From a virus (Duplodnaviria; Caudoviricetes), in the IMG/VR virus record IMGVR_UViG_3300021956_000015, positions 1 through 60,012 of that record: a stretch of 60,012 nucleotides of DNA; one strand, 5' to 3'. The stretch's first letter is position 1. Every line of letters starts with the position of its first letter. Position numbers and translations under genes: made by a program. Below the pieces are notes generated by a model. The model made no database searches. It was not told the DNA's origin and saw only the letters and a program-made list of their open reading frames with translations. Below are positions 5,967-58,370 of this stretch, piece after piece.

Positions 5967-6270
5967 CGGCCCTCCTCACATCAGACCCACGCAGGATCAT
6001 GGCGATGTGCCGAACGTCGTTCCGCCAGGCATGCCAGTCGCACGCATGGCCGACGACGAAGTGACAGTCACGGCAGAATGTGATCAGGTTGGTGGGGTCC
6101 AGCTCGTCTCCGCCGGCATGCACCGGGTGGATGTGGTGGACCTCCAGGTCCGTGTCACGGCCGCAGCACTGGCACACCGCCTGGACGGCCAGGTGCTTCT
6201 TGCGGACCGTGGGCCAACGCCCGGAGCGGGCGAGTGCCTGGACGGTGTTCCAGAGGTAGGAGAGCATCAC
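5953..6270 (-). CDS. HNH endonuclease
   Basis: CQCC..EVHHI-P...NLITFCRDCH. Confidence 0.9.
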   Translation of the reverse strand: MMLSYLWNTVQALARSGRWPTVRKKHLAVQAVCQCCGRDTDLEVHHIHPVHAGGDELDPTNLITFCRDCHFVVGHACDWHAWRNDVRHIAMILRGSDVRRADGGA

Positions 6271-7682
6271 TCACCGTCCTGCATGAGGAGCGGGGCCATG
6301 ATGGCTGCGCCAACGCCTTGCTCAAGGAGGCGGCGTCGCATTTCGTCGGACATGATGTAGCGGCGGCCGGCTGTGGGCTGCGCATTATCAACAGCTTCAA
6401 CCCCTCTGTTGATTGCCTGCGTGCGCGCCGCGTGAGCTGCGGCCAACTCCCTGGCCTGCAAGTACATTTCGTTCATGCGTTCCGGACCTACGATGCCAGC
6501 AAGATCGGCCGCGATGTTGTCCAGCACGGTTTTGGCGCTTTCCGCTCCGTCATGGAAATGCCCGGCGTTTATGCGATGTGTCTGCCCGCCCAACATGGAC
6601 ATCAACACCCTTGCCCTGGCCTGCACAGCAGAAGCGCGATTGTCTAAGCCGGTCACATTTGAGCGGTTCACTATCTCGGAATAGGCCTCGTCCATGGCCT
6701 GCCTGTTGGTTGGGACCGGAGCGGGTGGCACCTCCTCCACAAGTCCACCCATCTTCCTGCCAAGTCTCTCCAGCGCGCCGGGAACCACCTTCCCGTAGAA
6801 GTGCTCGTAGTTGTCGATGTTGCCGCCCACCTTGTCAGCGATTGCCCTGGGAGCGGCGACTTCGATGGCGCGGTGGCCCTGGCGAGCGGCCTCCAGGGCG
6901 AGGCGTTTGATTAGGATGTCTGACCATGCGTCTTCAAGCGGGAATGGGAGTTCCGTCCCGGCCTCACGGCGAGCCAGCTCCAGGTCAACCGCCGGCATGT
7001 TTTCGGCGGCCTCCTGGTAGCCAGCCATGAACTCCCTCGCCTTGCGGTTGTGAATCCCCAGGTCTGACTGGAGTTCGTTGATCCGCAGGGCGTCGCCGTG
7101 GGTGTCGTAGCGGGCGTGGGCTACTGCGGAGTCTGCGCCACGCGGGTACGTGCCACCGTAACCGCCGCGCCAATGGCTGTTAAAATCACTCCCCCTCGCG
7201 CCTGGCTGTAGCAAGAGCAGTTCCGCGTAGTCGCTTCCGCCTTGCCCGTAGTCTGCGTACTGCGGGGAAGCTACTGATCGTCCCTGACCTATTGGGGACG
7301 GGGCGCCACCGCGCACTGCCACCATGTGCGGCGTGTCATCTTCGTAGTTATACGCACCTGGCACGTACTCCATCACTGGCCTGCCGCCAAGGATCGTCTC
7401 CTTGTGCGTGTAGACGGGGCTCAGTTGCTGGACGCGCCTGAGGATTTCTTCTCGCGGCACAACGTCGCGCCCGGCGACAAGCGAGTCCAGGTCAACGGCC
7501 TTCAGCTCCCAGCCCGGGACGCCTTCCTTGTGCCGCTTGAGGAGCCCCGGAAGCTCTTGCACGCGGACGTTCTCAGGCATGGCCTGGATAGCCCGCTCCA
7601 GGCGAGAGTAGATGCCAGGCCCCGGGTTGTAAGTCAGCAGGCCAGCGATCTTCCGGCCCATGGCGTCAAGCGTTGCCATCAC
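6267..7682 (-). CDS. Stand-alone large-polyvalent-protein-associated domain protein
   Basis: YSRLERAI, Y-ELLL, SHW, AHARY..LRINELQSD, PFP..W...IKRL motifs seen in phage polyvalent proteins. Confidence 0.6.
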   Translation of the reverse strand: MMATLDAMGRKIAGLLTYNPGPGIYSRLERAIQAMPENVRVQELPGLLKRHKEGVPGWELKAVDLDSLVAGRDVVPREEILRRVQQLSPVYTHKETILGGRPVMEYVPGAYNYEDDTPHMVAVRGGAPSPIGQGRSVASPQYADYGQGGSDYAELLLLQPGARGSDFNSHWRGGYGGTYPRGADSAVAHARYDTHGDALRINELQSDLGIHNRKAREFMAGYQEAAENMPAVDLELARREAGTELPFPLEDAWSDILIKRLALEAARQGHRAIEVAAPRAIADKVGGNIDNYEHFYGKVVPGALERLGRKMGGLVEEVPPAPVPTNRQAMDEAYSEIVNRSNVTGLDNRASAVQARARVLMSMLGGQTHRINAGHFHDGAESAKTVLDNIAADLAGIVGPERMNEMYLQARELAAAHAARTQAINRGVEAVDNAQPTAGRRYIMSDEMRRRLLEQGVGAAIMAPLLMQDGE

Positions 7683-8716
7683 TCATCCTCCGACGGCATG
7701 AGTGCTGGAACAGACAGCAGCCCACCGTTGCGGATGAAGTCTCGCAGCACCCAGGCTGGCGTCTCTCCCATTCGCAGCCCCTGTTCTGCGGCCGTCGCCT
7801 CAACGGCGTGCGGGAACGTGGGATCGCCAGACTCAACGCCAGTCACGTGCGCGCCGCCAATCCAGCGGGCTGACTGCAGCTCTGCCGGCGACAGCCCGGC
7901 CTGGTCCGCGAGCCGCTGCGCCATTCGTTCGGCCGCCACGTATTCATTGGGCGTGAGTTTTCCCTTGACGTACGCCTTCTCACGCGCGTTCCATTTCTGG
8001 GGAACGCCAAGCCGGGCTCCCTCATGTCGGTCGCCAGTCCATGGCATGAGATTGCCACGCAGGTCTTCCCGGAACGACAGGATTTTGTGCGACGCACCTG
8101 GCCGAGCGGCGCGATGCAGCTGATCTCCTGCGAGGAACCTGCTGGTCCACATCGCGTCGTTGATGCTGGCGACAGACCCATAGCCCTCCGGCGGCGGGTT
8201 GTCGGCAAGCCACGCCTCGGCAGCAGCCTTGGAGTCGATGTCCGGAGGCAGCAGCCCTTGCAGAGCCTTCTGCCGATACCAACTCGCCTTGCGGATGTTG
8301 GCCCGCACCGGGGCCGCAGAGGATGACCCGGCCACCATAGCGGTGAACAGGTCGAACTGGCGATTGCCCTCGTCTTCTCCAAGCTCCATGACGAACTGCT
8401 GGCGAAGCGGCTCGTTGTGATACCAGGTGTGTGCGCCCTGCTCCATGCCTCGCTCAACGTCGCGGAGAATAGTCCTCCTGCGGTTGGCAAACCCAGCCTG
8501 AACTTCGGATGGCGGGCGGCTTGTCTGATATCGAATAATCGGAGACTGCTCAACGCCCACCACCGGGGCAACGTCACGCATCGCCAGGAGGCTCAGTGCC
8601 GGAGGGCGGACCTCTCGCAGCCGGCGGATGCGAGCCAGAATCTCATCGGCCGATCTGGACGACGGGCGGACGGACCACTTGAGGACGTCGTCCGTGAGGG
8701 ATGCTGGATTAGCCAT
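7679..8716 (-). CDS. Putative helix-hairpin-helix DNA-glycosylase-like protein (DUF7178-like)
   Basis: WY..A-SS....-N...KI-SF-..L..T-DRH...Y......A...G-SPAELQS--W pattern. Confidence 0.5.
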   Translation of the reverse strand: MANPASLTDDVLKWSVRPSSRSADEILARIRRLREVRPPALSLLAMRDVAPVVGVEQSPIIRYQTSRPPSEVQAGFANRRRTILRDVERGMEQGAHTWYHNEPLRQQFVMELGEDEGNRQFDLFTAMVAGSSSAAPVRANIRKASWYRQKALQGLLPPDIDSKAAAEAWLADNPPPEGYGSVASINDAMWTSRFLAGDQLHRAARPGASHKILSFREDLRGNLMPWTGDRHEGARLGVPQKWNAREKAYVKGKLTPNEYVAAERMAQRLADQAGLSPAELQSARWIGGAHVTGVESGDPTFPHAVEATAAEQGLRMGETPAWVLRDFIRNGGLLSVPALMPSEDE

Positions 8717-9945: not shown

Positions 9946-10277
9946 GGGTCCCCTCCGGTGTCGTCCAGGTGGCGCGTGTCATGTCTTCGACCTGGCCGCG
10001 GGCCGGTCGGTGTACGGTGCCCGGGCCGGCGGCAGCGTGGCCTACGCTGTCGGCTAGCCCCGCCCGGGGGTGCGTCCGTCGGCTGGCGGGAGTCCCCGTC
10101 AGCCGCTGGTCATGGTGTACGGTGACCGGCGGGCACGTTCCCCGCCGGGCGTCCCCTGAGGCCGGGCACCGGCGAGTGCCGGGTCGGCTGCGACGGCGGG
10201 GGGCGTCGCGGTTGGTTCGTCCCCCGGGCTGCGGGCGGGTCGCCTGGCTGGCGCTCGCTCGCCCGCTGCCCGGTCTG

Positions 10278-10469
10278 CTAGGCCTGCTGGGCGGCGCGGG
10301 CCGCCTTGATGGCCTGCACCGCCTCCCGTAGGGTGCGCTGCTCTTCGCGGGCCGATGCCCGGACGTAGCCCAACTCGCTCTTGAGGTCTTCGGCCACCTC
10401 CACCAACCTCCGAAACAGGGCGGCGTGGGTGATGCTCAACTGCGCGGCGGTCATGGTAACGGTGATCAT
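10278..10469 (-). CDS. Small helical protein, paralog family member 2
   Basis: 63 aa MITVTMTAAQL...AAQQA, AGGAG RBS. Confidence 0.75.
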   Translation of the reverse strand: MITVTMTAAQLSITHAALFRRLVEVAEDLKSELGYVRASAREEQRTLREAVQAIKAARAAQQA

Positions 10470-10500
10470 GGCTGGGGCTCCTGTGGTGATTGGCGGTCTG

Positions 10501-10692
10501 CTAGGCCTGCTGCGCTGCGAGGGCCTCGGCGAGCAACGCGGCGGCCTGCCGCGTGATGACGTAGGCCTCCCGGGCGGCCTGCCGGGCATCCTCGTCTGCG
10601 CTGGTGAGTTCCGGCCGGAGATACTGCAGGCGGCTCAGCAAGGCGACGCGTGCGGCGGCCACGTGTTCGGCGGTCATGGTCAAGGTGATCAT
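10501..10692 (-). CDS. Small helical protein, paralog family member 3
   Basis: 63 aa MITLTMTAEHV...AAQQA. Confidence 0.75.
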   Translation of the reverse strand: MITLTMTAEHVAAARVALLSRLQYLRPELTSADEDARQAAREAYVITRQAAALLAEALAAQQA

Positions 10693-10882
10693 GGGTCGGC
10701 TTCTGTGTTGGTGTACGGTGCCCCCGGGGGCGGCTGCGCTGCCTGCCCCCCGGGGGTGATGCGGCGACCGCCTCCGGTGGCGGTGCCGCTGGTGCCTGAC
10801 GGGCTGCGGGGTTGCCGCCGTCGCGGTCCCCGTGCCCGTTGCCCCGGCTGGGGCATCGCCCGCTAGGGGCTGTGGCGTTGGT

Positions 10883-11500
10883 CTACTCGCCCCGGGCCTC
10901 GCGGAGTTGCTCCCGGTAGGCGTCAAGGTCTTCCCCGGTCCGCCAGGTGGGCGGCACGCTGCGGTGGGTCCGCTCCAGCGTCCGGGCCGCGTTGGGGTCC
11001 ACGTACAGGTGAAGCCCCCGCACCCCCGCCACGGGCGGCGGCGTGGCCGGGCCGCTGCCGTAGACGCTCGGAGCGTGCCCGGGCTCGGCGAGGGCCCCGG
11101 GGCCGATGCCGTTCGCGGCGTGGACCCGGTCCACGGGGACGCGGAACCGCTCGGCCTGTTCGGCCATGTCCGCCGGGCTGGGGCTGTGCATGTTGCCCCG
11201 GTCCATCACCGGACGGACCATGTCCTGCTTCCGGTCGCGGGCCCTCTTGGCCTCCGGGTCGAACATGGCCCAACCATGCTTCCGGGCCGCCTTCCTCAGG
11301 ATCAGGGCCGCATGCTTGACGCTCTCCGGCTGCGTCTTCCAGCGGATGGACATGATCCGCAGGATCACCTCGGACGCGACGTCTTCGGCCGTGCTGGCGC
11401 TGGCCATGGTGACATGGTCATAGCCGTCTCGCCTCGCTGACGCGGTGATCATGCGGTGGGCGTCGGACCATTCGTCGGGGGTGGCGTTGGGGAAGTTCAT
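10883..11500 (-). CDS. Hypothetical protein with sigma-70 region-2-like N-terminal part
   Basis: AEDVASEVILRI resembles ECF sigma region 2; AGGAG RBS; own promoter. Confidence 0.5.
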   Translation of the reverse strand: MNFPNATPDEWSDAHRMITASARRDGYDHVTMASASTAEDVASEVILRIMSIRWKTQPESVKHAALILRKAARKHGWAMFDPEAKRARDRKQDMVRPVMDRGNMHSPSPADMAEQAERFRVPVDRVHAANGIGPGALAEPGHAPSVYGSGPATPPPVAGVRGLHLYVDPNAARTLERTHRSVPPTWRTGEDLDAYREQLREARGE

Positions 11501-11548
11501 CGAATCGGCTCCTAGTGTGATGCTGCGGTGACAGCCGCAGCGTGAGTG

Positions 11549-11577
11549 ATTGTAACGGCGGGGCGTGGCGTTGTCAA
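11549..11577 (-). promoter_or_regulatory. Near-consensus sigma-70 promoter
   Basis: TTGACA-17 bp-TACAAT on the minus strand upstream of 11500. Confidence 0.85.
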
Positions 11578-11602
11578 GTGGTTGTAACTCCCGGGTGTAA
11601 CG

Positions 11603-11824
11603 CTAAACCCGCCGCCACTGCCACGCGTGGACGATCCGCCCGGCATCATCGCGGAGCGTGGCCCGCATGGTCGCATCATGCCTCCACCCGGGTTCGGTGG
11701 CCTGCCAGACGGAGCGGGCGTAGGCGAGGGCGGCGGGCACGTTGGGCTGACGGCTTGCCCTGTAGCCGGTGACGATGCCCCGGCGGGCGGTGCGGTGTTC
11801 CAGTTGGAGTTCTACGGTGAACAT
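11603..11824 (-). CDS. Hypothetical protein
   Basis: 73 aa MFTVELQLEH..., AGGAG RBS. Confidence 0.65.
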   Translation of the reverse strand: MFTVELQLEHRTARRGIVTGYRASRQPNVPAALAYARSVWQATEPGWRHDATMRATLRDDAGRIVHAWQWRRV

Positions 11825-11910
11825 GGGGACGACTCCTAGGGTGAGGGACTGAGGCTCGCAGCCGCCCCCGGCCGTGGGCACCGGGGGCGGTTCGCGAGGC
11901 TCAGGCCGCA

Positions 11911-12186
11911 CTAGGCCTGCTTCACGGCGAGCCGGTCGGCGTTGGCGACGATGAAGGCCTTCAGGCCCTCCACGTTCGCGGGGTCCAGCAGCCGCTCCCA
12001 CTGCGAGCGGTAGAGGGTCTGCGGGAACCTGCCGAGGCCGTAGACGCTCACGGCACCCTTTTCGGACACCTTGAACGAGATACGGCTGCCGCTGGCCTGC
12101 GAGGCCTTGAGGGCGGCCAGTTCGGCCCGGAGGGCGGCCAGTTCGGCGGCGGCGGCGTTGTCGGCGGCGGGGGTCGGCTTGGGCAT
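11911..12186 (-). CDS. Conserved hypothetical protein
   Basis: Coiled-coil start plus KVSEKGAVSVYGLGRFP-TLY--QW motif; AGGAG RBS. Confidence 0.8.
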   Translation of the reverse strand: MPKPTPAADNAAAAELAALRAELAALKASQASGSRISFKVSEKGAVSVYGLGRFPQTLYRSQWERLLDPANVEGLKAFIVANADRLAVKQA

Positions 12187-24187: not shown

Positions 24188-24671
24188 CCTCCTTCAGAGC
24201 AGCCACCAACGCGGCACGCTTCTCGTCAGTCAGAGCCACATCGTCCTTGCCAATCGCCTTGACCAACAGCTCATCGATGGCGACGTCCAGCCCGGAGTAC
24301 TTCCCGGGCAGGTCGGTTCCCTTGAACGCCAGGTCCAACGCGTCGGCATTGGCTTTCCGCCACTTGCCCACGGTGGCGATGATGTGGTCATCCCGCGACA
24401 CAACGTCCGCCATGGCCGTGTAGTACGCGCGGACGCGTGCCTTGTCCTGCTGGCTGGCGGACTTCAGGATCGTCTGCACCTTGCTCTGCGGCCCGGACGG
24501 CCCGGCCGTGTCCTTGGGCGGAATGAACGCCACCACCAGGACCACCGCGGCGATCACCGCAAACAGGTGCTGCAGCACCACGGCCGGCGTCATCGACTTG
24601 ATCAGCGGCCACGCGTAGCTCAGGGCCACACACGCCGCCACGCACACGGCAACGATCTGATAGTGGGTCAT
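24168..24671 (-). CDS. Membrane protein
   Basis: Two N-terminal hydrophobic helices plus a soluble helical domain. Confidence 0.75.
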   Translation of the reverse strand: MTHYQIVAVCVAACVALSYAWPLIKSMTPAVVLQHLFAVIAAVVLVVAFIPPKDTAGPSGPQSKVQTILKSASQQDKARVRAYYTAMADVVSRDDHIIATVGKWRKANADALDLAFKGTDLPGKYSGLDVAIDELLVKAIGKDDVALTDEKRAALVAALKEVANAAR

Positions 24672-25558
24672 ACGATTCGCTTCTCGCTTTCGTCCAGGAG
24701 GCTTGCGGGGTTGATAAGCCCCCAGCCGTACAGGTGGTCATGCCCTGGGGCGCCTGCATCGACCGAGGTGTTCTTGACCAGGGCGTGCGCCTTCGACCCG
24801 TTGCGAGGGGGAGGCATCTGATTCCAGCCCAACGCCAGCACGCCGGCCACAAACGGCGCCGCCATGCTGGTGCCGGAGAGCGTGGCGTACCCGCCACCCA
24901 GCCAGCAGGATGTGATCTCCTCCCCTGGGGCGACGACGTCGATCTCCCGTCCACGGCTGGAGAACTCGCACACCCCTCCATGCCGGCCGGCGGCACCGAC
25001 GGCGATGGCCTGCTCGTAGGCGGCAGGGTAGGACACGCGCCCCCCGTCATTGCCGGCGGCGCAGACACAGACAACGCCTGACGCGTCCGCCGTCTTGATC
25101 GCATCCGTCAGATCGGCGGTGCGGACAATCGACCCAAGGCTCATAACGATGATGTCGCACTTGGCTTCGATGGCGAACAGGATTGCTCTGGCAACGGACT
25201 CCAGCGACCCGGAGCCGTTGTTGTTCAGCACCTTGAGGCTGACGATCTCGGCCTGCGGGGCGACCCCAGTCATGGGCCCGCGGGCAGCGATGACGCCAGC
25301 CACGTGAGTACCGTGACCGTTGGTGTCCGTAGCAGAGCAGTCCTTGGTGAAGTTCCGGTGCAGCTTGACCACGCCCTGGAGCGCCGGGTGGCTGTCGTCC
25401 ACGCCGGTATCAAGCACACCCACCCGCACGCCGGCCCCCTGGTGACGACTCCAGAGGGCCGGCAATCCGTACGCGGAGATAGACCAGTCCAGGCCTGAGG
25501 AGGGGAGGGCCTGTGCGACTGCCTCAACGCGGTACGGCGGCAGGTGAGCGAGCATCAC
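24668..25558 (-). CDS. Subtilisin-like (S8) serine peptidase
   Basis: VLDTGVD, HGTHVAG, AAGND, SGTSMAAP. Confidence 0.95.
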   Translation of the reverse strand: MMLAHLPPYRVEAVAQALPSSGLDWSISAYGLPALWSRHQGAGVRVGVLDTGVDDSHPALQGVVKLHRNFTKDCSATDTNGHGTHVAGVIAARGPMTGVAPQAEIVSLKVLNNNGSGSLESVARAILFAIEAKCDIIVMSLGSIVRTADLTDAIKTADASGVVCVCAAGNDGGRVSYPAAYEQAIAVGAAGRHGGVCEFSSRGREIDVVAPGEEITSCWLGGGYATLSGTSMAAPFVAGVLALGWNQMPPPRNGSKAHALVKNTSVDAGAPGHDHLYGWGLINPASLLDESEKRIV

Positions 25559-26775: not shown

Positions 26776-27035
26776 TTCAACCTCACAAACAGGGGGCCGT
26801 TGTCACCCACGTAGGCGCCCAGGACGTTGAAGTCCATGTACTCCTCCGCCTCTTCGTCGGTCATGCCGGAGTCAACGAGAATCTGGACGCACTTGGCCAG
26901 GTCATACACGGCGACAACAGGGTGGTGATGGTTCGCGGTGCGTCCGATGACGGCATCCTCAAACCCGTCTGCCAGCAGGGCGTCAGGGTTCTCGTCCTCA
27001 AGGGCCCAGTCATCGTCGTTACGGATGGAGATCAT
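26772..27035 (-). CDS. Conserved phage hypothetical protein
   Basis: ADGFEDAVIG..VYD..GM--EEAEEY-DFNV-GAYVG. Confidence 0.8.
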   Translation of the reverse strand: MISIRNDDDWALEDENPDALLADGFEDAVIGRTANHHHPVVAVYDLAKCVQILVDSGMTDEEAEEYMDFNVLGAYVGDNGPLFVRLK

Positions 27036-27433
27036 GGCTTCCTTGCCCAGTCCAGGTTCGTCTGCCTCTCTGCGAGGTAGAACGCGTGCGGTTCTTCCGG
27101 CTCGTATCCAAGGTGCTTCTTGTGCCGCAGCGAGGCGAGGTACGCCGGATCGTAGTTCTCCGGGTCGCACTGCTGCTTCGCCCACAGCATTGTACGCTTG
27201 TACAGTTCCGGGAAGTTACCAGCTATTCGTCCGTTGTGCAAAACGTCATGGCATCGCGAGCACAGCCGGAGAAAGTTTCTGATGTCATGCTTCCTGCCAG
27301 CGCCCTGCTGAAGGTGATGGACTTCCAAACGTCTGCGGCCATCTGACTCCGGCCACCAGCACACAGCACAACAGCGATGCAGCTGCACCCACTCTTCCAG
27401 CGCCGCCTGCTCCGCCTTCGTCATCCTCGCCAT
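27032..27433 (-). CDS. HNH-like nuclease
   Basis: CAVC..EVHHL..N-LRLCSRCH. Confidence 0.75.
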   Translation of the reverse strand: MARMTKAEQAALEEWVQLHRCCAVCWWPESDGRRRLEVHHLQQGAGRKHDIRNFLRLCSRCHDVLHNGRIAGNFPELYKRTMLWAKQQCDPENYDPAYLASLRHKKHLGYEPEEPHAFYLAERQTNLDWARKP

Positions 27434-27783
27434 CAGCGGTCAAACGGGCATGAACGCGGGTCGCCACCCATCGCCAGCCACTCTCCGCGACTCTTCTGAA
27501 ACCCTTCGCCGATAAACTCGCCGGCATGGGCCACCTTCGCGGGCCTTGCCGCACGGGCCACCGTTGGCGCGCTGCGGGCCCGCTTGAAGTCAAAGGCCCC
27601 TATGGCCGCCTGCGCCGCAATCGCGTCTCTGGAGCCCGCGCAGGAGGCCCTGCGGCGAAGCTCGTCAATGACGCACTGATGCGGGCTGGCCATCGTCTCC
27701 ATGGCCCACTCCAGGTACTTCATCGGTACGTCGCATGCCGGAAGACCCCTGTGCTTGCCGAACGTAAAAGTGCCGCAATCCAT
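27433..27783 (-). CDS. DUF3820-like protein
   Basis: FTFGKHRG----DVP--YLEW; AGGAGG RBS. Confidence 0.75.
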   Translation of the reverse strand: MDCGTFTFGKHRGLPACDVPMKYLEWAMETMASPHQCVIDELRRRASCAGSRDAIAAQAAIGAFDFKRARSAPTVARAARPAKVAHAGEFIGEGFQKSRGEWLAMGGDPRSCPFDR

Positions 27784-28064
27784 GCGATTTTCCTCCTGTT
27801 TGCGCAGCCCGGCTTAAATGAGAGGTAGGGACCACTCACCGACGCCGCAGCGTCACGGGCCACCGGGCCGCTTATCGTTTACCTCATTGCCAGCTCCCGC
27901 CGGGGGTGGAGCTGGACCTTCGTCAGCCGGTGGACTGCCTTGTGCGGACTAGCCGCTCCTGCGATAGGGCAGGCGTTTGTTTATGCTCGCGCTTTTGGTT
28001 ACCAGTCGGCGGGTGCTGCGAGAAAATGAACCGCCTCGGACACTCCTGTATCACGGTGCGTGTG
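27784..28064 (-). ncRNA. Candidate structured non-coding RNA or origin region
   Basis: About 280 bp gap in a tightly coupled operon with nested inverted repeats; strand inferred from flanking genes. Confidence 0.35.
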
Positions 28065-28280
28065 TCACGCAACCGAACTCTCCAACTCACCCACTCTCGC
28101 CCGCAAAGAGGCCACTTGGGCCTTCTGCTCGGCAAGCAGGTCCTCAAGCTCGCGGATGCGAAACTGGGCATCGCCCAGGGCGCCTGCCGCAATCTTCAGG
28201 AGGCTGCGCGGGTCATGGTCGGTTGCGAACGGATCGTTGTAACACTTAAGAAGTGTTACTATCAGAGACTCTGTACTCAT
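28065..28280 (-). CDS. Hypothetical coiled-coil protein
   Basis: ATGA coupling, 71 aa. Confidence 0.65.
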   Translation of the reverse strand: MSTESLIVTLLKCYNDPFATDHDPRSLLKIAAGALGDAQFRIRELEDLLAEQKAQVASLRARVGELESSVA

Positions 28281-28516
28281 GTGAACCTTTCTGCTCTCAG
28301 CTGTTTGATCTCACGCGCTGCGGCTGCCGCAGAGTCGGCGTAGCAGTCGATCACGGTGTACAACCGTTCGATCTCATCGGCTGCCTTGCGAAGCAGCTCT
28401 GACCTGTCAATCGCCCTGGCTTGCGATGCGCTCTCGCGCAGAGCCGACGGCAGCAGCGAGCGATAAGACGGCGACATGTCCAGCGGGTCGCTCATATCAG
28501 ACGCCACCGATAGCAC
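28277..28516 (-). CDS. Hypothetical protein
   Basis: KAADEIERL motif; start uncertain. Confidence 0.6.
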   Translation of the reverse strand: MLSVASDMSDPLDMSPSYRSLLPSALRESASQARAIDRSELLRKAADEIERLYTVIDCYADSAAAAAREIKQLRAERFT

Positions 28517-28607
28517 AGGCCAATGGCGACGCCCAATGTCAACAGCATGCAGGCGAACAGATCGGTCATTCCTGAATCATCCTCGGCGTGTTACGAAGCA
28601 CACTGCT

Positions 28608-28626
28608 GCATAAACACTGGTTCTGT
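28608..28626 (+). mobile_element. attI-like recombination site
   Basis: GCATAAA-CACTG-GTTCTGT, same L-5bp-R geometry as attI1; R box complementary to R'' of the downstream attC. Confidence 0.5.
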
Positions 28627-28628
28627 GG

Positions 28629-28940
28629 CTACTTGTCGTCGCTCGGCGGGGCCGGGAGCGGCATCCAGTGCGTGATCTTCTTGCCTGGATTGTCGTCGGC
28701 GTCTCGCCATTGTCGGTACGAATCCAGATAGGCGAGGTGTAGGCCATTGCTCTGGCTCCACACCAGCACCATCAAGTCATTGACCGGGCACCGCTCCGTC
28801 ACCGAAATCCAATCCGGCTCGGCTGCAATCCGAACGATGTCCGCGATGCCTTTCGCCAGCACTTCGGCTTGATCGTTCGCCACAGAACCAGCGGATGCAA
28901 GAGACGGCTCGGCACCGTCCTGCGTGTTGTCGTCGTTCAT
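28629..28940 (-). CDS. DUF551-family protein inside an integron-like cassette
   Basis: WISVTERCP...VLV...ITHWMPLPAPP. Confidence 0.85.
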   Translation of the reverse strand: MNDDNTQDGAEPSLASAGSVANDQAEVLAKGIADIVRIAAEPDWISVTERCPVNDLMVLVWSQSNGLHLAYLDSYRQWRDADDNPGKKITHWMPLPAPPSDDK

Positions 28941-28971
28941 CGTTCGCCGCTCCTGATCCTGCGTGTTCTCA
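28882..28971 (+). mobile_element. attC-like integron cassette recombination site
   Basis: R'' ACAGAAC-5bp-L'' GATGCAAG ... L' CCTGATC-6bp-R' GTTCTCA, with two extrahelical bases. Confidence 0.75.
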
Positions 28972-29352
28972 CTCTAGCCGATCAAGCAAACCGCGCAACG
29001 CGGCCAACTCCTCGTCGCACTCAGTTGCGGTCGTCGCAGCCATCTCCACGCACCACACAATGGCAGACCGCTCCTCGTCGGTGAGCGTGAACGGCGTTAG
29101 CGTGCAGTATTGCGTCACGGTTCCGGTGACGTGCGGGCAGGCTGGCGAGTTTTCCTGCGACGAAACTTGACGCGGGTCATCAATCTGGACGATCACGCTT
29201 CCGTTGACAACCGACAGCGTGGCGTCCTGATCTGCGAAACGGCGGATGGCTGTGCGCAGCCGCTCAATCTCCTCCGCCGCACGCTCGCACAGCGCGTCCA
29301 CACCCTTGCCGGCGTACGCCCTGTCGCGGAGCTGGTCAACGATGTCGATCAC
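28969..29352 (-). CDS. Hypothetical protein
   Basis: DIVDQLR..AAEEIERLR..TLTDEERSAI; stop codon lies in the attC R' box. Confidence 0.75.
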   Translation of the reverse strand: MIDIVDQLRDRAYAGKGVDALCERAAEEIERLRTAIRRFADQDATLSVVNGSVIVQIDDPRQVSSQENSPACPHVTGTVTQYCTLTPFTLTDEERSAIVWCVEMAATTATECDEELAALRGLLDRLE

Positions 29353-29558
29353 GGATGGGCCTCCAGCATCGCGTCAGGAATCATGCCCCTGACCTCCTCG
29401 GCCAGGAGCACGGCGTCGTCGCTTGCGTCACCGTGCTTGATCAGGCTCCTGCAGCGATGGTCGATGTCCCATAGCGCGCATATGGCCTTCTGCCCTAGCA
29501 GGGCTGCCTGAAACTCGTAGTCATCGTCCGGCAGGTTGAAGTTCAGTGATGCTTTCAT
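29349..29558 (-). CDS. Conserved phage hypothetical protein
   Basis: MKASLNFNLPDD--EF..LWDID--CR--IKHG. Confidence 0.75.
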   Translation of the reverse strand: MKASLNFNLPDDDYEFQAALLGQKAICALWDIDHRCRSLIKHGDASDDAVLLAEEVRGMIPDAMLEAHP

Positions 29559-29640
29559 CGCTCGCTCACCAGTGACACAACCAGGACAATGGAAAACACC
29601 ATGATCCAGAACAGTTCGACCGGCATCGCATCGATGGCGT

Positions 29641-29910
29641 TCATGGCCAACTCGGATACAGCAGGACACCGCACTTGGTATCCGGGTCCAGGACTTCCAC
29701 GGCGGCCGTCCGCGGGAACGTAGTGCTGACCAGGTTGCAGATGTCGTCGTACGGCATCTCCGCCAGGACCTCGGCGTGCTCGTCGGCCCACATCTGCACG
29801 GCGGCGTGATCCCTGGCGAACCCAGGATCATCGTCCCCGCAGTTCATCCACAGCCGCATATCGAACCGCGGGTTGCGGATCATCACCATGTTCTCCCTAA
29901 CGCTGGCCAT
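29641..29910 (-). CDS. Hypothetical protein
   Basis: AGGAGGT RBS; AAVEVLD..GV. Confidence 0.65.
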   Translation of the reverse strand: MASVRENMVMIRNPRFDMRLWMNCGDDDPGFARDHAAVQMWADEHAEVLAEMPYDDICNLVSTTFPRTAAVEVLDPDTKCGVLLYPSWP

Positions 29911-29969
29911 GATGGACCTCCTTGGTGTCCTTGCAGTAGTAGCCTTCCCCAGGGACCTCCCCCCAGGAA

Positions 29970-30632
29970 TCAACCAGAATCTTCCGGAGCCTTGCGACCT
30001 CGGCCTCTAGCCGACGGATCACACCGATCATCTCCGTCGCCTTCTTCTCCGAACGCTCCAGTCGCTCCGTCAACCCACTGCAGGCCTGACGTTGGGAACA
30101 GCATGGCGCAGAGCTGGTCGGCGTGCCTGAGGAAACTGGACGGGGCGACGAGGGTTGGCATTGCGAACCCTCGCATGCCGTCATAGACGACACGCTCTTC
30201 CCAGGATTCGTCGCGGTCGATGGAGCAGAGCCACACCCACTTGCCGGTGACCTGGGACACATAGACCCAGGCGAATGGCTGCTCGCCCTTGCGGAGTCCG
30301 GTGACGTCATCAACGAAGACGGTGTCATAGGGGAAGTCGTCTGGTCCTGTGAACTCAAGGCTTCGGAGCTTGATTTCGATGGCGACTGCCGCCACCGCGT
30401 CCGGGGTTGGACAGAAGTCCTTGCGAGGGTTGTGTTCCGGCAGGACGAGTTTGATTCCGTCGGCGACAGCGCGGCCGTGGATCGTCCGCATCGACTCCAC
30501 CCACGCGTGCTCTGCCTTGTGGGCCTTTGACAGGACGTTCAGGAACTTCTCCTTGGACCATCCGGTCGATGTTGACTTGCCTGACCCGCGCTGCCCTCCT
30601 GGCGATCTCCGCGGGGCTGATCTCTTTGGCAT
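29970..30632 (-). CDS. PD-(D/E)XK nuclease-like protein
   Basis: E...PD......IEIK-R; start uncertain. Confidence 0.55.
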   Translation of the reverse strand: MPKRSAPRRSPGGQRGSGKSTSTGWSKEKFLNVLSKAHKAEHAWVESMRTIHGRAVADGIKLVLPEHNPRKDFCPTPDAVAAVAIEIKLRSLEFTGPDDFPYDTVFVDDVTGLRKGEQPFAWVYVSQVTGKWVWLCSIDRDESWEERVVYDGMRGFAMPTLVAPSSFLRHADQLCAMLFPTSGLQWVDGATGAFGEEGDGDDRCDPSARGRGRKAPEDSG

Positions 30633-32684: not shown

Positions 32685-33020
32685 CTAGAACGCAGACTCC
32701 TCCTGCCGCTCACGGGCACCACCCAGCAGCGTCACCTCACGGACCTGCAGGCCCGTGTGCGTGCGCTTCTGTCCGTCCTTCTCGTAGCTGCGGCTCTTGA
32801 GCGATCCGGTCACGCAGATCGTCTTGCCGCGGGTCAGGTACTCAGCCACCTGGCCCGGCCTCCAGTAGTCGCAGTCCAGGAACAGGACGTCGCCGTCCTT
32901 GCGTCCATTGACTGCGATGGCGAACGAGGCGACCTCGTTCTCACCGACCATCTTGACCTCGGCATCCCGGGTGAGATTGCCGACAAACGTGCACACATTG
33001 ACTCCGCTGGCCATCGTCAT
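32685..33020 (-). CDS. ssb: Single-stranded DNA-binding protein
   Basis: GNLTRDAE, F-IAVN, YL-RG--I-VTG-L-SR-YE-DGQKR, acidic-aromatic C-terminus. Confidence 0.93.
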   Translation of the reverse strand: MTMASGVNVCTFVGNLTRDAEVKMVGENEVASFAIAVNGRKDGDVLFLDCDYWRPGQVAEYLTRGKTICVTGSLKSRSYEKDGQKRTHTGLQVREVTLLGGARERQEESAF

Positions 33021-33670
33021 GCCTCCTGGAAACGGGTGGAAACCAACTCACTCATCCGGTCGAACACGGCCTGATCGCAGACACGCTCGCTCACGCGGAG
33101 CTTGATGCGGTCCAGCGTCTTCTGGGCGTCGGCCATGGTCTTGGCCTTGTCGATCTCGCCCTTCGCAATGGCTTCGATCTGCAGGCTCTTGTCCGTGCGT
33201 TGCGGAGCCTTGGCCTTGGCGGTCGCCTGCGGCATCACCTTCTGGGCGTCGTCGTCGTCCTCGGCCCACGCACCGACCAGACCCAGCAGCAGGTACTTCT
33301 TGGCGTAGGTGTAGGCAGAGCCCAGGGACTGCATGTCCTTGCGCTCCACGCCCTCCTTGTCCACCCCCAGGTACACCGGGCACAGGCTGGTGACGAACTC
33401 GCCACTGCTGTGCCGCAGCGTGCCCACCGCGATCCACTCGCCGCCGACACGCGTCAGGCACACCTGCGGCAGCGGGAACCCGTGCTGGTTGAGAGGCTCC
33501 CGCAGGGCCTCGCAGATGTCGCTGTACCGCATGTACTTGTAGCGACCGAACGTGTTGTTGCCGCCCTTCTCAACGGCAGGGAACTTGGCCTGAGCCTTCA
33601 CCAGCGCTCCGACCAGAGTCGTCGTCTCCGGGCTCGTCGTCAGTCCCGGCAATCCATGGTCAACAATCAT
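33017..33670 (-). CDS. ERF-family single-strand annealing protein
   Basis: ALVKAQ, N-F--YKY, H-SGE, Q-LGSA-TYAKKY-L, EDDDDA. Confidence 0.9.
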   Translation of the reverse strand: MIVDHGLPGLTTSPETTTLVGALVKAQAKFPAVEKGGNNTFGRYKYMRYSDICEALREPLNQHGFPLPQVCLTRVGGEWIAVGTLRHSSGEFVTSLCPVYLGVDKEGVERKDMQSLGSAYTYAKKYLLLGLVGAWAEDDDDAQKVMPQATAKAKAPQRTDKSLQIEAIAKGEIDKAKTMADAQKTLDRIKLRVSERVCDQAVFDRMSELVSTRFQEA

Positions 33671-34542
33671 CGCCTTCCTCCTGTGAAAAACGCTGGGAAC
33701 TCCAGCTCCGTCTCCTCGTCGTCCTCCGGTGCCCTGTACTCGCTCAGCTGTCGCCGCAGCCGAATCTGGTCCAGGGTCACCTTGATCTGCTCGCGAGCCT
33801 CCTCCACCAGTTCCTCTGGCAGGGTAAGCACACGCACCGCGTGCGGCTTGCTCGTCTGGGCGAAGATGAATCGCAGCTGGTGGTAGTCCCAGCCGCAAGC
33901 CATCGCTGCGTCCACGTACCATGCTGCCTGCCACAGGTAGCCGAACGAGTCGCAGGAGCGCCACAGGTCCTTCCAGTCGGAGGATGTGGTCTTGTAGTCC
34001 CAGAGAAACGCTTCGGTCACACCGTCAGCCAGTGACTTGCGCTTGTGACCGTGAGCGTCCTCATGCCGGAACGCGGCCTGCATGTCCTTGGTCGCTTCCA
34101 GAATCTGGCGAGCACGCTTGTTCTTCAGCGTGTTCTGGACGATGCGGTTGAGCTTCCACCAGTCGGCCGCCGACACTTCCATGCGGCCCTGGTTCTGCTC
34201 CTTCCACTCTGTGTACGCCTTGCCACGGCGAGCCCCGTTCGACAGGACCTCCTCAGGCGGGATCACGTAGCGGTCTTCCAGCCGCACGCCGGCCACCACC
34301 ATTGGGATGGCCCGGTCCACAAGCGTTCCGAAGTCCGTTCCGGCGTTGCCGCTGAACAACTGTTCCCCGTTGTCCAACGCCTCCTGGGCCAGGCCGCCGC
34401 CCTTGAAAACGGAGTGGGCGAACGAGCGTGTCAGGTAGCCGTCGTCCTGCCGGTACGCCCTATCTATGGCGTCCTGGTCAAGGAGTGTCCCGTTTGTGGA
34501 ATCCAGGCAACCTGGGGAATACGATCCAAATGTGACGGTCAT
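33667..34542 (-). CDS. RecE/exonuclease VIII-like PD-(D/E)XK exonuclease (DUF3799-like)
   Basis: FGT-V, K--AD, DYKTT, Y--QAAWY, FIF; next to ERF gene. Confidence 0.8.
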   Translation of the reverse strand: MTVTFGSYSPGCLDSTNGTLLDQDAIDRAYRQDDGYLTRSFAHSVFKGGGLAQEALDNGEQLFSGNAGTDFGTLVDRAIPMVVAGVRLEDRYVIPPEEVLSNGARRGKAYTEWKEQNQGRMEVSAADWWKLNRIVQNTLKNKRARQILEATKDMQAAFRHEDAHGHKRKSLADGVTEAFLWDYKTTSSDWKDLWRSCDSFGYLWQAAWYVDAAMACGWDYHQLRFIFAQTSKPHAVRVLTLPEELVEEAREQIKVTLDQIRLRRQLSEYRAPEDDEETELEFPAFFTGGRR

Positions 34543-34692: not shown

Positions 34693-34722
34693 TTGACAGG
34701 GCCGCAAATTGCGCAACTGTCA
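34693..34722. promoter_or_regulatory. Palindromic site overlapping a TTGACA upstream of the tyrosine recombinase
   Basis: TGACAG-GGC-CGCAA-A-TTGCG-CAA-CTGTCA. Confidence 0.5.
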
Positions 34723-34731
34723 GGTATCGCC

Positions 34732-35550
34732 ATGCTACTCTCCGATTACGCTTCCCGCTACGCCAACCGAATAGGGGCTTCGGCCGGCTATTTGGAGCAA
34801 CTTTTGGTCTTCACCAAGAGGCTGCCGTGGCACGTTGAGGAGATCACCACCGAGATGGTGGACGACTACCTGACGGACGCTCTCACCCATTTGGGGGCTC
34901 AGACAGTCGCCAATCACCGCAGACTCCTCACAACCCTCATGCGCGACGCAGCCCGCAACGGACTGAACACGTGTATAGCACGTGGATTCCGCCGGGTCAA
35001 GGTGCCTAGACCCGTCCCCAGAGCGTTGTCCCTGAGCGAGATCAGAGCGGCAGTAGAAGCTGCTCGCAAGACCAAGGGTCATTTCCGTGACCTCCGAAAG
35101 TCGGACTTCCTTGTCGCGTGGTTCCTGACCGCCTACTGCACCGGCTTGCGTGCCGGCGACCTCATGGAGGCGAGGTGGGATCAGATTCGCGGCCGACGAA
35201 TGTATGTGCGTCAATCCAAGACGTCAAGACCACACGTGGTGGTTTTCACCGACGAAGCGTTGGAGGCGTGTAAGGCCCTTCCGCGGAAGCCCCGCATCTT
35301 CGGCGACCATGCTGCGATGAACACCATACAGCAATGGGTGAAGGTATGCATGCTGTCAGCGGGCTTGGATGCCAGCACCAAGTTCCTGCGGCGCTCTGCA
35401 GCTACTTACGCCAAGGTGCAGGGCAAGAACCCCAAGAACGTGCTGGGGCACCTTACCGACGGACTCGCCGAACGCCACTACGTCGATCAGCTTCTGTACG
35501 AGGAAGAGGCCGGCATCAACGGTGAGCCGCTTCCGTCGGTGCTGAGCTAG
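34732..35550 (+). CDS. Tyrosine recombinase/integrase
   Basis: TGLR-GDL, QSKT, KFLRRS (HxxR variant), LGH, HY. Confidence 0.88.
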   Translation: MLLSDYASRYANRIGASAGYLEQLLVFTKRLPWHVEEITTEMVDDYLTDALTHLGAQTVANHRRLLTTLMRDAARNGLNTCIARGFRRVKVPRPVPRALSLSEIRAAVEAARKTKGHFRDLRKSDFLVAWFLTAYCTGLRAGDLMEARWDQIRGRRMYVRQSKTSRPHVVVFTDEALEACKALPRKPRIFGDHAAMNTIQQWVKVCMLSAGLDASTKFLRRSAATYAKVQGKNPKNVLGHLTDGLAERHYVDQLLYEEEAGINGEPLPSVLS

Positions 35551-41475: not shown

Positions 41476-42399
41476 CTATCTCCCGTAACGCTTGTCCAAA
41501 ACCCGCTGAATCGCCGCATAGGGATCGTCTGGCTCCCATGAAAGCGCTGGGTCATCCTGAAAAATGTCCATTTCAGGCATGCGTGGCTCCGGAATCACCG
41601 GATTTGTCCATCCGCGGACGTCGTCTTCCATGGAGCCCATGGCCGACGAAAATGTGATTTCGTCGGCCATTTGGCCCAGCGCGTCCTGCACGCCAACTCG
41701 GTTGTCTAGGTGAGAGATTTTCCTGGACAGCCGGTCGTCCAGCACCCGCTGGTACTCCTCGCGGGCCGCCGCCTCGTCGGCCATCTCCTGTCGCTTCCTG
41801 GAGACGGCGTCGTAGACCCCGTACCCGGTGAGCCCAGCAGCCACGGCTGGCAGCGAGTACTTTCTGGCGGCCGTGCCGATAGCGTCAGCCACGGCCTTTG
41901 TCTGCACGCGGCGGCGCTCGGCTGCGGCCTGCCGCTGCATGGCGGCGACGGCGGCGTCGTCCTGGGCCTGGAACGCAATGGTGGCGATGGACTGCGCCCG
42001 CTGCTCCGGGGTCAGCCGCTCAAGGCGGGACCGCATCAGGGCATTTCCGCGGAGAGCGTCTGTGACTTCGCTGGACGGTCCGGCAGCGTTCTCCATGGCG
42101 GCGTTCCCGGCCTGGTTCAGAACGCGCTCCTCCGCCCACGCCCGCGGCCCGCCAACGGCCGCGTATTCCACCGACACTGGGTCAAGCACTGGGCCCGGGA
42201 CCTCCAGTCGCGGAGCCGCAGGACCCTCAAGCTCAGCAAGCTTCCTTGCCAGGTCGTCAATGACGTCCTGCGACCGGCCGAAGTGACGAGCGTCGTTCAG
42301 GGCCGTCCTGGCCAGGTTCCGCGCAACCTCGGCGCTGCGGGCCTGGTCGGCAAGCTCGGCGAGGAACCGGCGGATCGGAGAGCTTGTCGCACCGTTCAT
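41476..42399 (-). CDS. Putative internal virion protein
   Basis: 307 aa, helical, one hydrophobic segment. Confidence 0.6.
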   Translation of the reverse strand: MNGATSSPIRRFLAELADQARSAEVARNLARTALNDARHFGRSQDVIDDLARKLAELEGPAAPRLEVPGPVLDPVSVEYAAVGGPRAWAEERVLNQAGNAAMENAAGPSSEVTDALRGNALMRSRLERLTPEQRAQSIATIAFQAQDDAAVAAMQRQAAAERRRVQTKAVADAIGTAARKYSLPAVAAGLTGYGVYDAVSRKRQEMADEAAAREEYQRVLDDRLSRKISHLDNRVGVQDALGQMADEITFSSAMGSMEDDVRGWTNPVIPEPRMPEMDIFQDDPALSWEPDDPYAAIQRVLDKRYGR

Positions 42400-56406: not shown

Positions 56407-56920
56407 GTACCTCCGGGAGTGCCTGGACCGTAATGGTCTTCAGCGTGGCTGCAGTTTCGATGAGTCGCTCGCGAAGCTCGTCCTCCAGCTCGTCCTCGCT
56501 CCAGAGCGTAAGCGGCTTCTTGGCCCCGCCCATCGCCGTGTTATTGGTGACCAGGCGGACGATGGTTTCCAGCTGTTTGGTGCGGAACGCGCCCCCGGGA
56601 GGGCTGTCGTAGAACTGCTTCATAAACAGGTTGGCGAACCCGCGGGTGCCGCCCATGTAATCCAGCAGCGTCTCCAGAAGCTCGGCGCTGTGCGGGATGT
56701 TCCCTCCGCCCAGCCTCGCCGCCTTGCAGAACACATCGACGGCGTCCCGTTCGATCTGGTCAAGCCTGTCGTCCTTCTTCTGCTTGCGTCGCTTCCGCTC
56801 ATAGGCCGTGCGGCAGGTCTTGCACCGTGGATGCCGCTTCCCGTCCGACGCCAGGTGGAAGGCGTCGTCAGGCAAATCCTTCTTGCACTTGACGCACGTT
56901 CTCACCGCTCTGCCATCCAC
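56378..56920 (-). CDS. Putative terminase small subunit with N-terminal Zn finger
   Basis: CVKC/CKTC; directly upstream of terL; WSEDELE. Confidence 0.55.
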   Translation of the reverse strand: MDGRAVRTCVKCKKDLPDDAFHLASDGKRHPRCKTCRTAYERKRRKQKKDDRLDQIERDAVDVFCKAARLGGGNIPHSAELLETLLDYMGGTRGFANLFMKQFYDSPPGGAFRTKQLETIVRLVTNNTAMGGAKKPLTLWSEDELEDELRERLIETAATLKTITVQALPEVREEAPAPDS

Positions 56921-58314: not shown

Positions 58315-58341
58315 GGCACACCTTGGGGGGGAAGGGGTGTT

Positions 58342-58370
58342 AGTGTACGTGCGTCTACGCACTTGGTCAA
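58342..58370 (-). promoter_or_regulatory. Sigma-70 promoter with palindromic spacer
   Basis: TTGACC-17 bp-TACACT; spacer holds GTGCGT-NN-ACGCAC. Confidence 0.7.

Follow-up and report, generated by a model that had tools for sequence, protein, structure and literature searches.

Gene setting of the locus

The DNA analysed here (the window, by which we mean the whole stretch of 60,012 nt) is the IMG/VR virus record IMGVR_UViG_3300021956_000015, a complete phage genome (CheckV completeness 100) with a G+C content of about 63%. Its gene set includes a large terminase, a portal, structural genes, an Erf-like annealing protein, a helicase and one small tyrosine recombinase, and the virus is a temperate tailed phage from freshwater. 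The segment that concerns us, 28585-28971, lies in its early region, where all the surrounding genes are carried on the minus strand, and combines three features. These are a hairpin-forming site of the attC type, as known from integrons, at 28882-28971 (its top strand being the plus strand of the window); a gene at 28629-28940 on the minus strand, taken from the list of open reading frames (ORFs), whose 103-residue product matches the DUF551 family (Pfam PF04448, E-value 4.7e-11) as well as PHROG entries; and a short variant of an attI-like site at 28585-28626 on the plus strand. We consider it highly probable that these features constitute a one-cassette integron platform without an integrase, made up of a double-strand site of the attI type, a DUF551 cassette and an attC, on which an integron integrase (IntI) of the host would act. 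Such a minimal platform had been proposed from the letters of the sequence in the original prediction, and its parts (attC, attI-like site and cassette) were borne out by the analyses reported below.

Architecture of the attC site and its cassette

Read along the top strand, the attC site begins with an R'' core, ACAGAAC (28882-28888), followed by a 5-nt spacer, an L'' box, GAT(G)CAAG (28894-28901), with a bulged G28897, and a stem segment, AG(A)CGGC (28902-28908), with a bulged A28904. A variable loop of approximately 28909-28945 leads into the returning strand, which consists of GCCGCT (28946-28951), the L' box CCTGATC (28952-28958), a 6-nt spacer and the R' core GTTCTCA (28965-28971), with the predicted crossover between G28965 and T28966. 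The minimum-energy fold of either strand is this hairpin with its two bulged bases, so that the four boxes and the two extrahelical bases are all found as they had been proposed at the outset. In integrons the bottom strand is the recombining strand of attC; here it is the minus strand of the window, which is the mRNA-sense strand. The identification of the site rests on its sequence and folds, on two covariance models (R1 and R2, see below), on its correspondence to the attC of aadA2 and on covariation across 34 copies.

The integrated cassette would comprise the 345 nt from T28621 to G28965 (28621-28965, plus strand), containing the DUF551 gene together with its own attC, and it opens with bases (TTCTGTGGC) complementary to the R'' region of its attC. 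This complementarity takes the form of a perfect inverted repeat of 13 nt (28617-28629 and 28879-28891) with 249 nt between its arms. Immediately beyond the attC lies a backbone gene of 127 residues (28969-29352, minus strand), the TGA stop of which (28969-28971) falls within the R' core, so that the attC overlaps the end of this upstream gene.

Covariation and covariance models

Through the proteins flanking the site we collected 14 related IMG/VR loci and searched them for further copies. The 90-nt stretch recurs 2-10 times in each of these loci, always on the gene strand and at intervals of 300-1200 nt. An alignment (A1) was built from 34 of the 35 distinct phage copies, one (L009:3332-3421) being omitted because its 3' half is unrelated sequence. 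Paired states occupy 94.2% of the cells of this alignment at the 18 paired positions, as against 27-44% when the partners are slid, and double changes are seen in 10 of the 18 pairs. Altogether 91 compensatory cells were counted versus 27 in shuffles, a value reached by none of 500 shuffles. The same pattern of pairing and covariation is repeated in a second alignment (A3) of 74 sites from metagenome-assembled genomes (MAGs) of bacteria. The outer AAC and GTT are invariant or nearly so in both the 34 phage copies and the 74 MAG copies, and the two bulged bases hold fixed positions across the copies in A1.

Two covariance models were derived from this material: R1, from the phage copies of A1 only, and R2, from the 74 sites, which come from 16 of 120 such MAG loci and include no phage sequence. 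Three of the bacterial arrays behind R2 adjoin integron integrase genes. With R1 the window site, which is part of the training set, scores 88.8 bits and forms all 18 model pairs. R2 recovers 28882-28971 on the minus strand at 50.0 bits (E-value 1.5e-10), the next best match in the 60 kb reaching 16.1 bits. The original prediction had proposed a check with the attC model of IntegronFinder; R2, a surrogate for that model, thus supplies covariance-model support at exactly the predicted boundaries.

As an external reference we used the class 1 integron of plasmid CP142539.1 (locus L281), which carries intI1, dfrA12, a DUF1010 gene, aadA2, cmlA1 and aadA1 and whose attC sites are independent of the training sets of both models. 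R2 recovered four of four attC sites in it, with 42.4, 36.6, 26.8 and 25.7 bits (next match 11.5), and R1 recovered the same four, with 35.9, 30.4, 24.8 and 20.4 bits (next match 9.2); neither model found anything else under an E-value of 0.1. All eight of these matches are to the bottom strand, opposite to the cassette genes. On the top strand of the aadA2 attC, the two outer cores are each 7 nt long. The first is separated by 5 nt from L'', which spans 8 nt including an extra base at its fourth position, and another extra base (A) comes 6 nt later; L' measures 7 nt and stands 6 nt away from the second core. The plus strand of the window follows this layout position by position. Since the aadA2 layout is matched and R1 finds all four class 1 sites, we identify the phage element as attC by structure and model. 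There are differences in detail: the first extra base is a top-strand C (bottom-strand G) in aadA2 and a top-strand G (bottom-strand C) in the window, and the class 1 cores depart from the phage cores beyond the GTT/AAC triplets. Furthermore, class 1 integrons carry their cassette genes on the top strand, with expression proceeding from the attI side; the phage genes have the opposite arrangement.

Cassette arrays in related phages

A pattern derived from the conserved arm, scanned over IMG/VR, drew in at least 120 further stretches. Among the matches listed, R1 located 214 sites in 80 phage loci, and the largest array comprised 15 sites in 4.8 kb (locus L059). R1 was run on loci L016-L095 and L137-L236, 16 chosen MAG loci, the record of L129 and L281; loci L096-L135 were covered by a structural scanner and L002-L015 by nhmmer and the scanner, with L237-L256 outside all searches. 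The structural scan returned 275 sites in 1.26 Mb of loci versus 14 in a shuffled set of equal size. Spacers of 6 nt and 5 nt (bottom strand) characterize 247 of these 275 sites, and the bulges on the gene strand are C at 262 and T at 242 of them. The analyses of neighbours, hairpin pairs, array ends and ORFs reported below were conducted on the 247 scanner sites with 6/5 spacers, 215 of which remained after removal of duplicate contexts. We also observed short-loop attC forms of 48-58 nt that alternate with the 85-93-nt forms in the same arrays (e.g. L059 622-670, 889-937 and 1483-1531), and the genes that follow them have their starts between 2 nt upstream and 109 nt downstream of the site's end.

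If cassettes are excised and inserted as circles at the core, the variable core bases that follow one site are predicted to be complementary to those that precede the next one, across the intervening cassette. This holds for the four variable core bases in 71% of 121 neighbour pairs (gaps of up to 2500 nt being allowed), as compared to 15% within a site and 16% in random pairs. The 13-nt repeat of the window, which the earlier proposal had explained by R'/R'' pairing in an integrated cassette, is one instance of this relationship. The proposal of modules of about 345 bp fits the window cassette; as a fixed size it does not extend to the relatives, in which array spacings range over approximately 300-1200 nt.

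Comparison of sites sharing identical hairpin interiors revealed a marked asymmetry: in 24 pairs the downstream gene (in the sense direction) was the same and the upstream gene different, and in only 1 pair was the reverse seen. In 39 pairs with a common upstream gene and unrelated hairpins, the identity is 1.0 through the AAC and then falls to 0.18-0.62 over the next six bases. The 24:1 bias and the breakpoints at AAC show that the exchanged unit consists of an attC with the gene on its R'' side and that the crossover takes place at the R' triplet, as in integrons. Comparison of the relatives shows cassettes to have been shuffled as well as gained and lost, the breaks falling at the invariant GTT/AAC triplet.

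An attI-like site closes the arrays

The attI-like site of the window (28585-28626) is composed of GGCGTGTTACG.. followed by ..GCATAAACACTG and ends in the core GTTCTGT (28620-28626), with a predicted crossover between G28620 and T28621. On the side corresponding to the left of the window, the arrays are closed by a lone core complementary to the start of the last cassette. We distinguished 62 such array ends, 27 of which (class A) are within three mismatches of a single 14-nt motif, with 9 close variants, amounting to 36 of the 62. The remainder include 11 further attC sites missed by the scanner, 11 members of two other recurrent classes and 4 unclassified ends; in 23 further arrays a closing core was not found within 2 kb. 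The two other classes, B (L028, L093, L013, L029 and L041; 5 distinct) and C (L102, L107, L091, L017, L085 and L116; 6 distinct), may represent attI sites of other integrase types.

The 14-nt motif also occurs between the last cassette and intI in two MAGs (G004 and G005) and, in a looser form, in a third (G001). The attI-like site of the window has no intI of its own next to it, and the homologous site adjoins intI in each of these three genomes. With attI1 it shares repeats of the GTTA type followed by ..TAAA.., 5 nt before G|TT; sequence identity to attI1 is low, the gapped alignment A5 having a mean column identity of 50%. Its reading as an attI, first suggested by the layout of attI1, is strengthened by its conservation at 36 of 62 ends and by its resemblance to sites beside intI in three MAG contigs. 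The short form, which is without one repeat unit, is found in the window, in a close relative (G016) and in L076. Right after the site, at 28495-28572 on the minus strand, we noticed by eye an ORF of about 25 codons, many of them for hydrophobic residues, that extends over the start of the next gene.

The breakpoint at G28620|TT had been predicted to vary in its cassette content among relatives, and this proved to be the case. G016 (locus L129), which is 84.8% identical to the window over 6.3 kb and has a recombinase 94% identical to that of the window, contains two attC sites. Its short attI-like site, the same as in the window, is preceded by two cassettes, one DUF551-like and the other of about 150 codons, and here too the junction falls at the AAC/GTT core. 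Two further states are documented by contigs from other freshwater metagenomes (runs X3 and X4). Record 9 of X3, whose attI-like site has 5 mismatches in 118 nt, represents an empty site, GTTCT being followed directly by the end of a homologue of the 127-residue gene; in record 15 of X4, with 1 mismatch in 129 nt, a different cassette begins after GTTC. Another run, X1, may be the sample from which the window itself derives. Thus two cassettes, none and a different one are found at the same break. On the other side of the attI-like site, the segment 28000-28619 gave no blastn match in the fetched phage loci or in the close relative L129.

Cassette genes that start inside attC

The phage arrays show an orientation in which every cassette gene is on the attC bottom strand; this means that reading of the array starts on the phage side and proceeds to attI, opposite to the classical layout. 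In the window, the attC contains a ribosome-binding site, AGGAG (28951-28955, minus strand), the ATG (28938-28940) and approximately the first 19 codons of the DUF551 gene. In 148 of 181 long sites, likewise, the stem holds the ribosome-binding site, and translation from a start codon in the loop would continue across the 3' arm and on into the cassette, the ORFs having a median length of 105 residues. The stop codon of the previous gene is inside the core or at most 9 nt away from it in 168 of 200 sites. The loop and 3' arm of the attC thereby encode a ribosome-binding site, a start codon and a leader of about 15-22 residues, ending roughly in S-x-A-S-x-G-S, and it is the constraint on the 3' arm that gives the cassette proteins a common leader.

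The pool of genes attached to these leaders is diverse, with 168 ORFs falling into 77 clusters, of which 65 are singletons. The DUF551 genes form the second largest cluster (18 of the 168 ORFs), and the cassettes also include C5 and N6/N4 DNA methyltransferases (PF00145 and PF01555). The C-terminal part of the 127-residue backbone gene likewise reappears in cassette arrays of other phages.

Chromosomal integrons with the same attC type

The conserved-arm pattern was also scanned over one genome per prokaryote species, which yielded mostly single chance matches in unrelated taxa, and only loci with model matches were used. R1 gave 117 matches in the 100 genome loci searched, with arrays in MAGs titled Planctomycetota, Planctomycetaceae, Pirellulales and Candidatus Kuenenia. 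The integron integrase model TIGR02249 detected a protein in five of five tested MAG genomes with arrays, above the curated cut-off in four of them, and the IntI of G001 is 53.4% identical to IntI1 over 313 residues. In G001 and G003, intI is located just past the last array site, on the same strand as the attC top strands, and likewise in contig C39 of G320 (an assembly titled Cyanobium sp. FGCU52). This orientation equals the 'inverted integron-integrase' layout named by Cury et al. 2016 (PMC4889954).

The chromosomal integrons (G001-G005 and G320) resemble the phage arrays in their 6/5 bottom-strand spacers, their bulged C and T, stems such as GATCAGC/GGCTCGCG, complementary cassette ends and the presence of the same site between the last cassette and intI. 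They differ from the phages in possessing intI, in having genes mostly on the top strand (the longest cassette ORF is there in 7 of 7 cassettes of L209 and 6 of 9 of L186) and in attC loops without start signals. In L186 (G001:C19), the cassette nearest to attI (6107-6600) holds two small overlapping top-strand genes that, read by eye, look like a toxin-antitoxin pair.

G320:C39 is of particular relevance to the relationship between the two sets. Its backbone has ordinary bacterial genes, encoding an ABC transporter, an LCP-family protein, an HlyD-like protein and a radical SAM protein, and the loops of three phage-type attC sites in its intI-adjacent array contain start signals. A 359-nt cassette stretch of this array has 92.2% identity to phage locus L033. 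This contig supports traffic between phage arrays and arrays linked to intI. The same array (L220) also contains two nearly identical attC sites of 103 nt (6860-6962 and 7622-7724) with cores CTCTAAC ... GTTAGAG; as this 103-nt type stands among phage-type sites, one array mixes attC lineages.

Source of the integrase

The absence of an integron integrase from the phage, asserted at the outset, was confirmed by profile searches: TIGR02249 had no match in the window at an E-value of 0.01, and searches of 10 further phage records with arrays, of which 6 have a completeness of 90% or more, were likewise negative at 0.001. A tblastn search of the phage loci with four MAG IntI proteins returned only one weak match, with 25% identity, in L128. 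The only tyrosine recombinase of the phage, a protein of 285 residues encoded at 34693-35550 on the plus strand (PF00589, 33.5 bits; NCBIfam Xer-like, E-value 5.7e-7), is weakly XerC/XerD-like and lies beside a gene of tail-fibre size; it is most likely a lysogeny integrase and not an integron integrase. Its counterparts in other array loci have 21-45% identity to it, the sole exception being that of L129, at 94%. Given that no IntI was found on these phages and that their own recombinases are highly divergent, an IntI supplied in trans by the host is the most economical reading. On this model, the host-supplied integrase would act on the folded bottom strand of attC, joining it at G|TT either to another attC or to the attI of the phage, and the resulting circular cassettes could move among phage arrays and bacterial integrons.

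Evidence against the platform and alternative explanations

Several observations weigh against the reading of the locus as an integron platform served by a host integrase, beginning with the attC itself. The energy of its fold is unexceptional, being -14.7 kcal/mol on the bottom strand (z -0.12; 82 of 200 shuffles equally good) and -14.1 kcal/mol on the top strand (z -0.28; 74 of 200). The 13-nt inverted repeat, which the original prediction had regarded as a mark of integration, is present and exact, although it does not by itself exceed chance: the window has 3 perfect 13-nt inverted repeats within 400 nt versus 0.94-1.27 expected, and at least one is seen in 57-64% of simulated sequences. 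The two others are at 31278-31290/31607-31619 and at 41639-41670, the latter with arms only 6 nt apart, which makes a tight hairpin and perhaps a terminator. The cores GTTCTCA and ACAGAAC agree with the consensus GTTRRRY/RYYYAAC in the GTT/AAC triplets only, and 262 of the 275 scanned sites, that of the window among them, have C as the first bottom-strand bulge, where the classical attC has a conserved G (Loot 2017). As only one attC was found in the window by R1 and R2, the locus is also below the rule of at least two sites for a cluster of attC sites lacking an integron integrase (CALIN); relatives are not, with 2 sites in G016 and 15 in L059. From the window alone, the case for attC would therefore be weak, and the element stands above chance because the arrays in related phages show compensatory changes and because covariance models recognise it. 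According to Loot 2017, attC sites are 57-141 bp long and have just three conserved nucleotides in common; what is recognised is an imperfect hairpin in which some bases are extrahelical, the central spacer is unpaired and the terminal structure varies. For this reason the weak fit of the cores is not disqualifying. The C at the first bulge, which is also seen in MAG arrays beside intI, looks like a trait of this lineage that does not exclude it from the attC family.

Other points concern the models, the exchanges and the host. R1 and R2 are not fully independent, since the sites of R2 were picked and aligned using R1. In 97 pairs with identical hairpin interiors both neighbours are different, and in 7 pairs a common downstream gene goes with unrelated hairpins, implying exchange at the other core; owing to these pairs, other processes, for instance top-strand events, gene conversion or homologous recombination, must operate in addition. 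The attI-like site of the window is without the second repeat unit that is present in most relatives. Being assembled metagenome contigs, X3 and X4 document strain variants and not excision. The host search, in which the large terminase (54718-56406, minus strand) served as query, found nothing in 301 sampled genomes of the phylum of G001, in 251 sampled genomes of the phylum of G320 or in 94 other sampled genomes of the order of G319. The terminase matched only in the MAG G319, on short contigs, with 82% and 61% identity, and this genome had no IntI match at an E-value of 1e-30. G319, titled simply 'bacterium', has three terminase homologues on contigs C76, C391 and C531 (82%, 61% and about 70-74% identity) and also carries phage-type attC arrays (L147 and L201), and it may be a bin that collected phage contigs.

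The sites could be of the attC type and yet be served by the tyrosine recombinase of the phage itself (34693-35550) instead of a host IntI. There is exactly one such enzyme in the window and in each of 5 near-complete array-bearing phages, no IntI was found on the phages and no host emerged from the genomes searched, all of which would suit a resident enzyme. We regard this as unlikely, however, because the recombinases of other loci, L129 excepted, are 21-45% identical to that of the window while the attC and attI types remain constant, none of them matches the integron-integrase family at an E-value of 0.001, the same attC and attI types adjoin true IntI genes in bacteria, and the position beside tail genes would be that of an ordinary lysogeny integrase. 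A shade less likely still, in our estimation, is that the cassette and attI-like site are fossils, acquired long ago and now immobile, with the variation being old or due to homologous recombination. The solitary attC and shortened attI-like site of the window would agree with this, an Erf-like single-strand annealing protein is encoded at 33017-33964 (minus strand), and the hairpins shared by the 97 pairs of unrelated cassettes offer homology for recombination. Against it, the attC is fully intact, with 18 of 18 model pairs; the window, G016, X3 and X4 present four different states of one short attI-like site on nearly identical backgrounds; and the breakpoints between unrelated hairpins share only a core of 3-5 nt, which is too short for homologous recombination.

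A very improbable alternative is that the hairpin functions purely as an RNA element of the early transcript, for instance a translational operator that hides the ribosome-binding site, and has no part in recombination. The conserved strand is indeed the mRNA-sense strand, the stem encloses the ribosome-binding site and the loop the start codon in 148 of 181 long copies, and covariation cannot separate DNA pairing from RNA pairing. Nevertheless, an RNA element would leave unexplained the complementarity of cores across genes, the breakpoints at AAC, the conserved terminal site and the short-loop copies of 48-58 nt that have no start codon; moreover, the same element is found in intI-adjacent chromosomal arrays with genes mostly on the other strand, and class 1 attC sites fit the same model. 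An added role at the RNA level could exist alongside the role of the hairpin in recombination.

Relation to known phage elements

Phages of the T4 type carry 'mobile regulatory cassettes' consisting of a promoter and stem-loop, and lambdoid phages have the mosaic nin region; these elements are thought to be shuffled via homologous recombination between repeats. DUF551 genes, too, are typical of plastic early regions of phages. The present arrays are comparable to these elements in that a repeated structured element is set between small accessory genes in a plastic early region, and differ from them in that the repeats are attC sites with site-specific breakpoints and an end of the attI type.

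Integron elements on phages have been reported by Qi et al. 2023 (PMC9892861), who surveyed 10,705 NCBI phage genomes, counted 21 integron-bearing phages and 17 CALINs in them, and obtained recombination by IntI1 at 5 of 6 phage attC sites assayed. As presented there, those CALINs are like the arrays of the present phages in combining attC and cassettes without intI and in having DNA methyltransferase cassettes. The present phages are unlike that set in their number (at least 120 IMG/VR stretches), in arrays of up to 15 sites, in the attI-like end, in having all genes on the bottom strand and in the start signals inside attC. Arrays of the present type were not found in the literature covered, which did not extend to the supplementary phage list of Qi et al. 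2023, in which a relative of this phage family may appear. Hence, attC on phages is already known, and what did not turn up before is this family, its attI-like end, its abundance in viromes and its reversed genes that start in attC. A megablast search of 27500-30500 against 50,697 deposited phage records gave no match.

Other features of the phage genome

Elsewhere in the record, an HNH endonuclease (PF01844) is encoded at 27032-27433 and a protein with a DNA-methyltransferase-like C-terminal part at 56902-58362, both on the minus strand. A 296-residue subtilisin-like (S8) serine protease is specified by 24668-25558 (minus strand), with its best NCBIfam match, under the cut-off, to the mycosin family of type VII secretion (E-value 1.5e-55) and a weak match to the anti-phage peptidase IteS. 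A 2-kb block at 10001-12000 stands out by a G+C content of 72%, versus about 63% elsewhere, and by a strong AT skew.

Implications for phage evolution and integron biology

Beyond the locus itself, we advance a broader proposal, to which we give slightly less than even credence. It holds that a widespread lineage of temperate freshwater phages may have rebuilt its variable early region as an integron devoid of an integrase, keeping attI, borrowing the IntI of its hosts and trading cassettes with chromosomal integrons and with other phages. The attC would then have a dual role, as a recombination site at the level of DNA and as the ribosome-binding site, start and leader on the sense strand. 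In many integrons the expression of the integrase is tied to the SOS response, as is the induction of prophages. On account of this common link, the shuffling of cassettes might be timed to induction, when the phage DNA is replicating and single-stranded.

The mosaic blocks of small genes in phage early regions are usually ascribed to homologous or illegitimate recombination, and here a site-specific integron system appears to do this mosaic-making in a whole group of phages. The cassette shared at 92% identity suggests a concrete route for gene flow between chromosomal integrons and phages. For integron biology, the platform indicates that an attI-type site exists apart from its integrase and that the bottom strand of attC can hold translation start signals together with part of a reading frame. 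As reverse genes starting inside attC would be mis-annotated, programs that search for cassettes should look wider. For the phages themselves, the diverse pool of cassettes, including orphan DNA methyltransferases, furnishes candidate accessory and counter-defence genes.

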